The notes under the pieces: model-generated
Seen by the model: the letters and a program-made list of their open reading frames with translations, nothing else
What the model was told of the DNA's origin: nothing
Database searches by the model: none
Made by a program: the position numbers and the translations under genes
In this document: piece after piece, positions 61,569 to 62,399 of the stretch
How positions within the stretch are numbered: position 1 is the first letter of the stretch
Layout of the letters: every line of letters starts with the position of its first letter
DNA from: Escherichia coli
Lineage (GTDB): Bacteria; Pseudomonadota; Gammaproteobacteria; Enterobacterales; Enterobacteriaceae
Direction: 5' to 3' (one strand)
Assembly: GCF_009931435.1 (NCBI RefSeq)
Contig: NZ_CP043414.1
DNA: 64,000 bases

Positions 61569-61995
61569 ACCGGACTCCTCCTGCGATCCCTTCTGATACT
61601 GTCATCAGCATTACGTCATCCTCCGTCATGTCCGCCACATCCGGGGAAGCGGGGATAACTTCATTCCCGTCCGGGCCAAAGCGGACACCTCCGGCAAGCC
61701 CTGCCGCTTTCTGCATCAGCACATCATCTTCAGGCTCTTCGTCAGCCTCGCGCCGGTTAAGCAGACTGAAATCCAGCGGATGCATATCCGGATCGCTGAA
61801 AAACAGGCTGAGCACGGTGTACGTCAGCCCGGAAAAGTGCATATCCAGCAGAACATCATGAAAATAATGGGTACTGTAAAAGCGGTGCCAGTCGGCATAC
61901 TCCGTGGATGACATCCCGGCAAGCATGGCACGCCAGTCGGGTCGCCCCATCTCACGCGCCAGTTTCAGGGCAAAACTCAGCTCACCGTCGAACAC
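61561..61995 (-). CDS. T: Tail assembly protein T, expressed as G-T fusion by -1 frameshift
   Basis: 144-aa ORF with no independent ATG or SD; overlaps the 3' end of G at a slippery heptamer. Confidence 0.8.
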   Translation of the reverse strand: MFDGELSFALKLAREMGRPDWRAMLAGMSSTEYADWHRFYSTHYFHDVLLDMHFSGLTYTVLSLFFSDPDMHPLDFSLLNRREADEEPEDDVLMQKAAGLAGGVRFGPDGNEVIPASPDVADMTEDDVMLMTVSEGIAGGVRYG

Positions 61996-62399
61996 TTTCC
62001 CGCAGAAACAGGCTCTGCAGGCCCGGCGTCCTCTGTCTGTTCAGGGGTATTATTCACAACAAACTCATACATTCCGGACAGCCGGTACACCACGTTTTCA
62101 GCATGAGAAATTGCCTCTGTGGGCCAGGTGGTAAGCACTTCCTGTTCAATCTGTTTAACGGCTTCATTCATGGACGGCATCTGCGTCTTCTTCGGATGGT
62201 TATGCCACAGGGACATCGCCACCACACAAGCACCGGTTCTGATGACGTCTTCCACAGTAACCTGCCGGTTGCTGTCTGACTCCGCCTGTTCTGCCTGCCG
62301 TTTCATCAGGGCGAGATGCTCAATACGCTGCAGGGCTGACAGTTCAGAAAGCGTGACGGTCACGCCGTTATGTTCAAATGATTCGGTTTTCAGGAACAT
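61977..62399 (-). CDS. G: Tail assembly chaperone G
   Basis: 140-aa ORF between V and T. Confidence 0.85.
   Translation of the reverse strand: MFLKTESFEHNGVTVTLSELSALQRIEHLALMKRQAEQAESDSNRQVTVEDVIRTGACVVAMSLWHNHPKKTQMPSMNEAVKQIEQEVLTTWPTEAISHAENVVYRLSGMYEFVVNNTPEQTEDAGPAEPVSAGKCSTVS
61995..62001 (-). promoter_or_regulatory. Programmed -1 ribosomal frameshift site GGGAAAG (G to G-T)
   Basis: Minus-strand G GGA AAG in the G frame, 6 codons before G stop; -1 frame continues into T. Confidence 0.75.

Follow-up and report, generated by a model that had tools for sequence, protein, structure and literature searches.

The G/T overlap of a lambda-like prophage beside tRNA-Ser in Escherichia coli carries a predicted programmed -1 frameshift site

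Direct reading of the minus strand of a 64-kb window (the whole stretch of DNA analysed here) confirmed the heptamer G_GGA_AAG at positions 62001..61995, which almost certainly constitutes a programmed -1 frameshift site of the lambda G/T type in a lambda-like prophage located beside tRNA-Ser and next to hyaA. The locus displays all sequence-level features of the lambda G/G-T family: a gpG homolog, a T homolog in the -1 frame that overlaps the end of G and lacks a translation start of its own, a shift-prone heptamer in the X_XXY_YYZ register inside the G/T overlap, the contiguous gene order V, G, T, H, and conservation of the site at the homologous position in related loci. Below we describe the frames, the orthology to lambda, the lack of a T start and this conservation; that ribosomes slip in this prophage, how often they do so and that the products act as chaperones is inferred, with high confidence, from experiments on lambda.

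The shift site and its two reading frames

The minus strand around the site reads ...TCT GCG GGA AAG TGT TCG ACG GTG AGC TGA, and the heptamer encodes Gly-Lys in both frames. Gene G (61977..62399, minus strand), which would provide the tail assembly chaperone gpG (140 aa) as the major product, forms the zero frame and begins at ATG 62399. Because (62399-62001) mod 3 = 2, the heptamer is read as G_GGA_AAG in this frame. Five sense codons follow AAG, and the G stop (TGA, 61979..61977), which shifted ribosomes would bypass, is therefore the sixth codon past it. The first-pass annotation had placed such a heptamer in the G frame six codons ahead of the G stop, and its position, register and distance all proved correct.

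In the -1 frame, the T segment (61561..61995, minus strand; 144 codons plus stop) would form the C-terminal part of gpG-T. Translation of this frame gives ...*TDRGRRACRACFC GK VFDGELSF..., running to TGA 61563..61561, in agreement with the peptide GKVFDGELSF proposed to follow a -1 slip. The longer translation across the site, ...*TDRGRRACRACFCGKVFDGELSF..., is open as far as the same TGA, and a search for a stop codon in the -1 frame right after the heptamer found none. Base 61995 is read twice in the resulting 279-aa gpG-T fusion. What had to be corrected was the claim that the T frame is open from exactly the heptamer, since it already opens at 62040, 13 codons upstream, after the TGA at 62043..62041 that closes the frame on its upstream side. 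No start codon was present in the T frame within these 13 codons. In total, the T frame comprises 146 open codons and carries a full-length match to TIGR01715.

Both reading frames were assigned to their lambda counterparts by equivalog-level profile matches. The upstream ORF matched TIGR01674 (phage_lambda_G) at 211.8 bits (cut-off 74.45) as well as PF06894 (E = 3.7e-58), and the -1 ORF matched TIGR01715 (phage_lam_T) at 189.1 bits (cut-off 77.35). On the conceptual fusion, PF06894 is followed by PF06223. A 951-bp segment around the site shares 97.9% DNA identity with lambda 9660-10610, with 96.8% identity between the conceptual G-T fusion and its lambda counterpart. The two DNA sequences do not differ between 18 nt upstream of the heptamer and at least 94 nt downstream of it. 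The nearest substitution lies 18 nt upstream of the heptamer, and five fall within ~80 nt upstream, which might in principle alter shift efficiency. DNA identity, the TIGR01674 and TIGR01715 matches and the position between V and H together bear out the earlier description as a lambda G/G-T arrangement and, judged by sequence, make the locus an ortholog of lambda G/T, which is more than a mere resemblance. Of 5426 complete E. coli genomes, 3702 contain the 951-bp segment, and the closest phage record, a deposited genome of phage Chlobot, carries the same sequence (99.5% identical).

The genes flanking the site are those expected from lambda. Gene V for the major tail tube protein (62415..63155, minus strand) lies directly upstream of G, and gene H for the 853-aa tape measure protein (59007..61568, minus strand) has a strong Shine-Dalgarno sequence (SD), GGAGGAG, ahead of its ATG at 61568..61566, which overlaps the T stop (ATGGCTGA, 61568..61561). 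V, G, T and H are contiguous on the minus strand in the same order as in lambda and in one syntenic E. coli genome. Synteny extends over V-G-T-H-M-L-K-I-J, and no tail ORF in this series is disrupted or departs much from its lambda length. The prophage covers 49500-64000, with the window ending inside it, and the stretch from position 1 to ~49000 is E. coli chromosome, in which rutA/rutB, gfcD-E, etp, etk, appCBA and hyaABCDEF were confirmed. Because the tail-fibre end of the prophage is separated from hyaA by a tRNA-Ser(tga) gene (49398-49485, plus strand), it probably lies within ~0.5 kb of this tRNA gene. Expression of a prophage depends on induction. The side tail-fibre region varies among otherwise near-identical prophages: an 861-aa tail-fibre ORF that is intact here (50511-53096, minus strand) appears in the annotation of NZ_AP035757, the closest syntenic genome, as a partial pseudogene.

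The bare motif GGGAAAG occurs 13 times on both strands of the window, compared with ~8 occurrences expected from base composition. Being this common, the motif alone proves nothing, and we rejected its mere presence as significant; only the ORF architecture discriminates. When XXXYYYZ heptamers were filtered for an in-register location close to the end of an open frame (80 codons or longer) and for a -1 frame open over 60 codons or more, five of 416 passed, and G_GGA_AAG at 62001..61995 was the only one of these in the X_XXA_AAG class that is efficient in E. coli. Another heptamer passing the filter, T_TTT_TTG at 8929-8935 (plus strand), was rejected as a shift site. It stands in register, rutB occupies the -1 frame and the rutA stop follows 30 codons later; the heptamer appears incidental because rutB has its own AGGAGG-type SD and an ATG at 9020 that overlaps the rutA stop. 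This ordinary rutA/rutB junction is a useful negative control.

Start codons and conservation of the T frame

The mechanical ORF call for T begins at GTG 61995, which starts with the last base of the heptamer and is the sole start codon close to where the T frame begins. We calculated anti-SD duplex energies for all in-frame ATG, GTG and TTG codons and followed the conservation of the start codon. The best pairing for GTG 61995 amounts to -4.3 kcal/mol, a value that 41% of the positions in this region attain as well; the pairing sits in GGGA, directly abutting the GTG. The corresponding values for neighbouring genes are -6.6 (G), -10.3 (H) and -10.8 kcal/mol (M). Early internal ATGs of the T frame (codons 17-95 past the site) ranged from -1.0 to -3.3 kcal/mol. 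The ATGs at 61611 and 61605 reached -9.5 kcal/mol, and they lie ~14 codons ahead of the T stop, where the possible product would have only ~14 residues. Hence, this search of the in-frame ATG, GTG and TTG codons by anti-SD energy revealed no credible independent ribosome-binding site (RBS) and start for T. The first-pass annotation was right that T has no ATG or SD of its own: the pairing at GTG 61995 is at background level and the codon is not conserved. It had also explained the listing of T in the ORF track with a non-canonical start by the frameshift; the GTG call is indeed present, but it reflects an annotation convention, as it does in RefSeq and PGAP, and is not evidence of initiation.

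To place the site in a comparative context, we used a set of 224 loci composed of lambda-like IMG/VR loci, N15-like loci, Tritos-like loci and six named phages, the last of which were checked individually (36-58% protein identity). Among the lambda-like IMG/VR loci, 83 of 84 have GGGAAAG in register with T at -1. Across all four sub-lineages, N_NNA_AAG is present at the homologous site with T open in the -1 frame in 223 of the 224 loci, as GGGAAAG, GGAAAAG, AAAAAAG, GGCAAAG (n=1) or AGAAAAG (n=1). Only the A_AAG part of the heptamer is invariant in these 223 loci, and the P-site tRNA therefore cannot re-pair perfectly in many relatives.

The codon behind the site behaved differently. GTG is found there in 63 of 224 loci, all in the lambda-like subset, and elsewhere the codon is GTC, GCC, GCT, GCA, GTA or GCG. 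In ~60% of related loci, a non-start codon takes the place of the GTG that databases use as the T start. Between the stop that closes the T frame upstream and the conserved LxLAREhxRxDW motif, 100 of the 224 loci lack any ATG, GTG or TTG. From the site on, the peptide read in the T frame is conserved (GK[VA][FL]xxE[LM]xF), and the G-frame tail is variable (CSTVS*, PSPVS*, HSKAS* or S*). This comparative pattern, in which the site and the T peptide are kept and the GTG is not, suggests selection on slipperiness and on the T frame from the site onward, not on a start codon.

The sole exception among the 84 lambda-like loci, L005, was considered as a counter-example and rejected. Its heptamer is intact, and a 4-nt insertion ~40 nt upstream of GGGAAAG (about 1860-1910) causes G to end early and leaves T in the same frame behind the stop. 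L005 is either a pseudogene or the result of a sequencing or assembly error. A second locus, the lambda-like contig L070, diverges from all other loci after '...CCCGACTGGC', ~68-110 nt downstream of the heptamer, as it apparently lacks an internal piece of the conserved N-terminal region of T; its T frame is shorter and 88% identical. In the Tritos-like clade (L090 775-790; L172-L230), the G stop follows one codon past AAG (EKS*) and not five. The context of the shift site is remodelled in this clade, in which a candidate downstream helix (see below) is largely unpaired, and the site itself is kept.

These patterns bear on how such loci are annotated. In RefSeq lambda and the PGAP E. coli genomes, T is entered as a CDS of its own that begins at the heptamer GTG (1956-2390 in L001, which is lambda NC_001416, likewise 1956-2390 in L004, and 61561-61995 in the window), and the joined G-T product is missing. 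By contrast, a -1 frameshift site is marked at the homologous position in the records of N15 and LLS. Because T is listed as a stand-alone protein and G-T is omitted, ORF tracks and proteome databases hold a protein that is probably never made and miss the real one. As a rule for re-annotation, an invariant A_AAG, a 'start' that is not conserved and a T-frame peptide that is conserved from the site onward can be used together. The locus represents textbook biology known since 1993 and is no discovery; its practical value lies in annotation.

Proposed mechanism, competing readings and stimulatory elements

In the mechanism that we propose, ribosomes would initiate at the G ATG (62399), and most would terminate at the G stop to release gpG. 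A minority would undergo tandem -1 slippage of tRNA-Gly and tRNA-Lys on G_GGA_AAG, read the -1 frame past the G stop and continue to 61561, giving the 279-aa gpG-T. If ~4% of ribosomes slip, as in lambda, gpG and gpG-T would be made at a ratio of ~30:1. As in lambda, the G part of both proteins would coat gpH and the T domain would recruit gpV; the fixed ratio would be needed for correct tail assembly, and neither protein would be present in the finished virion. Because the local sequence is identical to that of lambda, we expect the same behaviour here with high confidence.

The experimental basis for this expectation comes from lambda and its heptamer. In lambda, the G/GT shift occurs at GGGAAAG and gives gpG:gpGT of ~30:1, with gpH- and gpV-binding roles of the products (PMC5009743), while ~96% of ribosomes stay in the zero frame (PMC3296357). 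Neither chaperone stays in the finished lambda tail, and the proportion of the two is important (PMC5009743, citing Levin 1993 and Xu 2013/2014). E. coli ribosomes shift very readily on G_GGA_AAG (PMC5009743, PMC6924986); in reconstituted translation the heptamer yields -1 products and is slipperier than G_GAA_AAG (PMC6924986). Shifting at the lambda site is sensitive to U34 thiolation of tRNA-Lys (PMC3296357), and hypomodification of tRNA-Lys(mnm5s2UUU) increases it and reduces phage production (PMC3296357, PMC7618472). Moreover, in the unrelated siphovirus TP901-1, mutation of GGGAAAG abolishes tails (PMC4493119).

Could T instead be an independent gene, with translation from GTG 61995 beginning de novo or through reinitiation by ribosomes that have terminated at the G stop 16 nt downstream? 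Its GTG at the start of the mechanical ORF, its deposition as a stand-alone GTG CDS in RefSeq lambda, PGAP genomes and several phage records, and a 3-nt 'RBS' marked in one record would speak for this. However, the anti-SD pairing at background strength that abuts the GTG, the loss of this codon in most relatives and of any start in 100 of them, together with the invariance of A_AAG, argue against it, and in lambda the T sequence is expressed via frameshifting as gpGT (PMC5009743, PMC3296357, summarising Levin 1993). We therefore regard an independent T gene as highly improbable. Even less credible is slippage of RNA polymerase on the GGGAAA run, which would generate mRNAs with one base more or less that encode the fusion directly: productive transcriptional slippage generally requires runs of ~7 or more, and the runs here consist of only three G and three A. 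Although bacteria and phages are known to obtain two-frame products in this way (PMC5009743), and AAAAAAG is found in a few relatives, the shift frequency in lambda responds to anticodon modification of tRNA-Lys, which is a translational property (PMC3296357), and G_GGA_AAG gave its -1 products in a reconstituted translation system (PMC6924986).

We give just as little credence to a chance heptamer in a decaying prophage, with the T frame as an unexpressed remnant. Many E. coli prophages are defective, GGGAAAG is frequent in the window, and the related contig L005 carries its G-truncating 4-nt insertion, all of which would fit such a scenario. Against it stand the intact, lambda-length tail ORFs from V to J, the same sequence in phage Chlobot, the 146 open T codons with their full-length TIGR01715 match, and the retention of the site in 223 of 224 loci. 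Programmed -1 slippage on G_GGA_AAG thus remains by far the most probable reading.

Both sides of the heptamer were examined for elements that might stimulate the slip. No SD-like element was found 6-17 nt upstream of the heptamer, and within the preceding 24 nt no anti-SD duplex was stronger than -2.5 kcal/mol. A candidate downstream stem-loop (61918..61986, minus strand) begins 8 nt past the heptamer, and we do not claim it as part of the signal. In single-sequence folding, it had an MFE z of -1.7, with nine of 200 shuffles equally good, and RNAalifold on 12 diverse sequences gave a covariation term of only -0.48. Pair counting on the same number of sequences looked promising, but was not significant on robust measures once 69 unique sequences were used. 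In this larger set, 90.7% of cells were paired, and six double-change pairs were observed versus 4.9 in shuffles (115 of 500 as high), a comparison confounded by the conserved T N-terminus. About ten sequences of the Tritos-like clade break many of the pairs. Covariation of pair 16:84 (AU 31, GC 26, CG 6) corresponds to about two evolutionary events, and column 84 is free within the Tritos clade. Overall, it seems unlikely that the stem-loop at 61986..61918 is a real but weak stimulator that tunes gpG:gpGT in the lambda, N15 and Stx lineages and was lost or replaced in the Tritos-like lineage. Lambda G-T is not known to have a defined RNA stimulator, and an efficiency as low as ~4% is in keeping with a stimulator that is weak or missing.

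Comparison with known frameshift systems

Frameshift signals of the dnaX and IS3 type are strongly stimulated, by an SD-like element ahead of the heptamer and a hairpin or pseudoknot behind it, and attain efficiencies of tens of percent. Unlike these, the site described here has neither an upstream SD-like element (-2.5 kcal/mol) nor a convincingly conserved downstream structure, and it falls outside the stimulated dnaX/IS3 type. What it shares with dnaX and IS3/IS911-type signals is a heptamer of the X_XXA_AAG class read by the single E. coli tRNA-Lys (PMC5009743).

The closer parallel is with the chaperones of long-tailed phages, in which, as here, an overlapping ORF pair lies between the major tail and tape measure genes and a low-efficiency -1 slip occurs near the end of the first ORF. 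This frameshift was reported by Xu and colleagues (Xu, Hendrix and Duda, 2004) to be conserved in long-tailed dsDNA phages, including N15 (genes 14/15), phi80 and TP901-1. At the homologous position, N15, phi80, LLS and Tritos have G_GAA_AAG and some Stx phages (Stx1/Stx2d) have A_AAA_AAG, in contrast to G_GGA_AAG here. By homologous position, the shift sites of diverged relatives were assigned to 799-805 in L085, L088 and L089, 808-814 in L086 and L087, and 775-781 in L090.

The closest known system is lambda itself, for which Levin, Hendrix and Casjens reportedly demonstrated the G/G-T frameshift experimentally in 1993, and further experimental work on gpG and gpGT is said to have followed from Xu in 2013 and 2014. 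Lambda G/T (NC_001416 9711-10549; slippery site 10109-10115) has the same heptamer in the same register and at the same distance to the G stop, and as in the prophage described here, T lies in the -1 frame, overlaps the start of H and is embedded in V-G-T-H synteny. The two loci differ by point substitutions only, at ~2% of bases. They differ also in chromosomal location: the integration site of lambda lies between gal and bio, whereas the present prophage resides beside tRNA-Ser(tga), next to hyaA.
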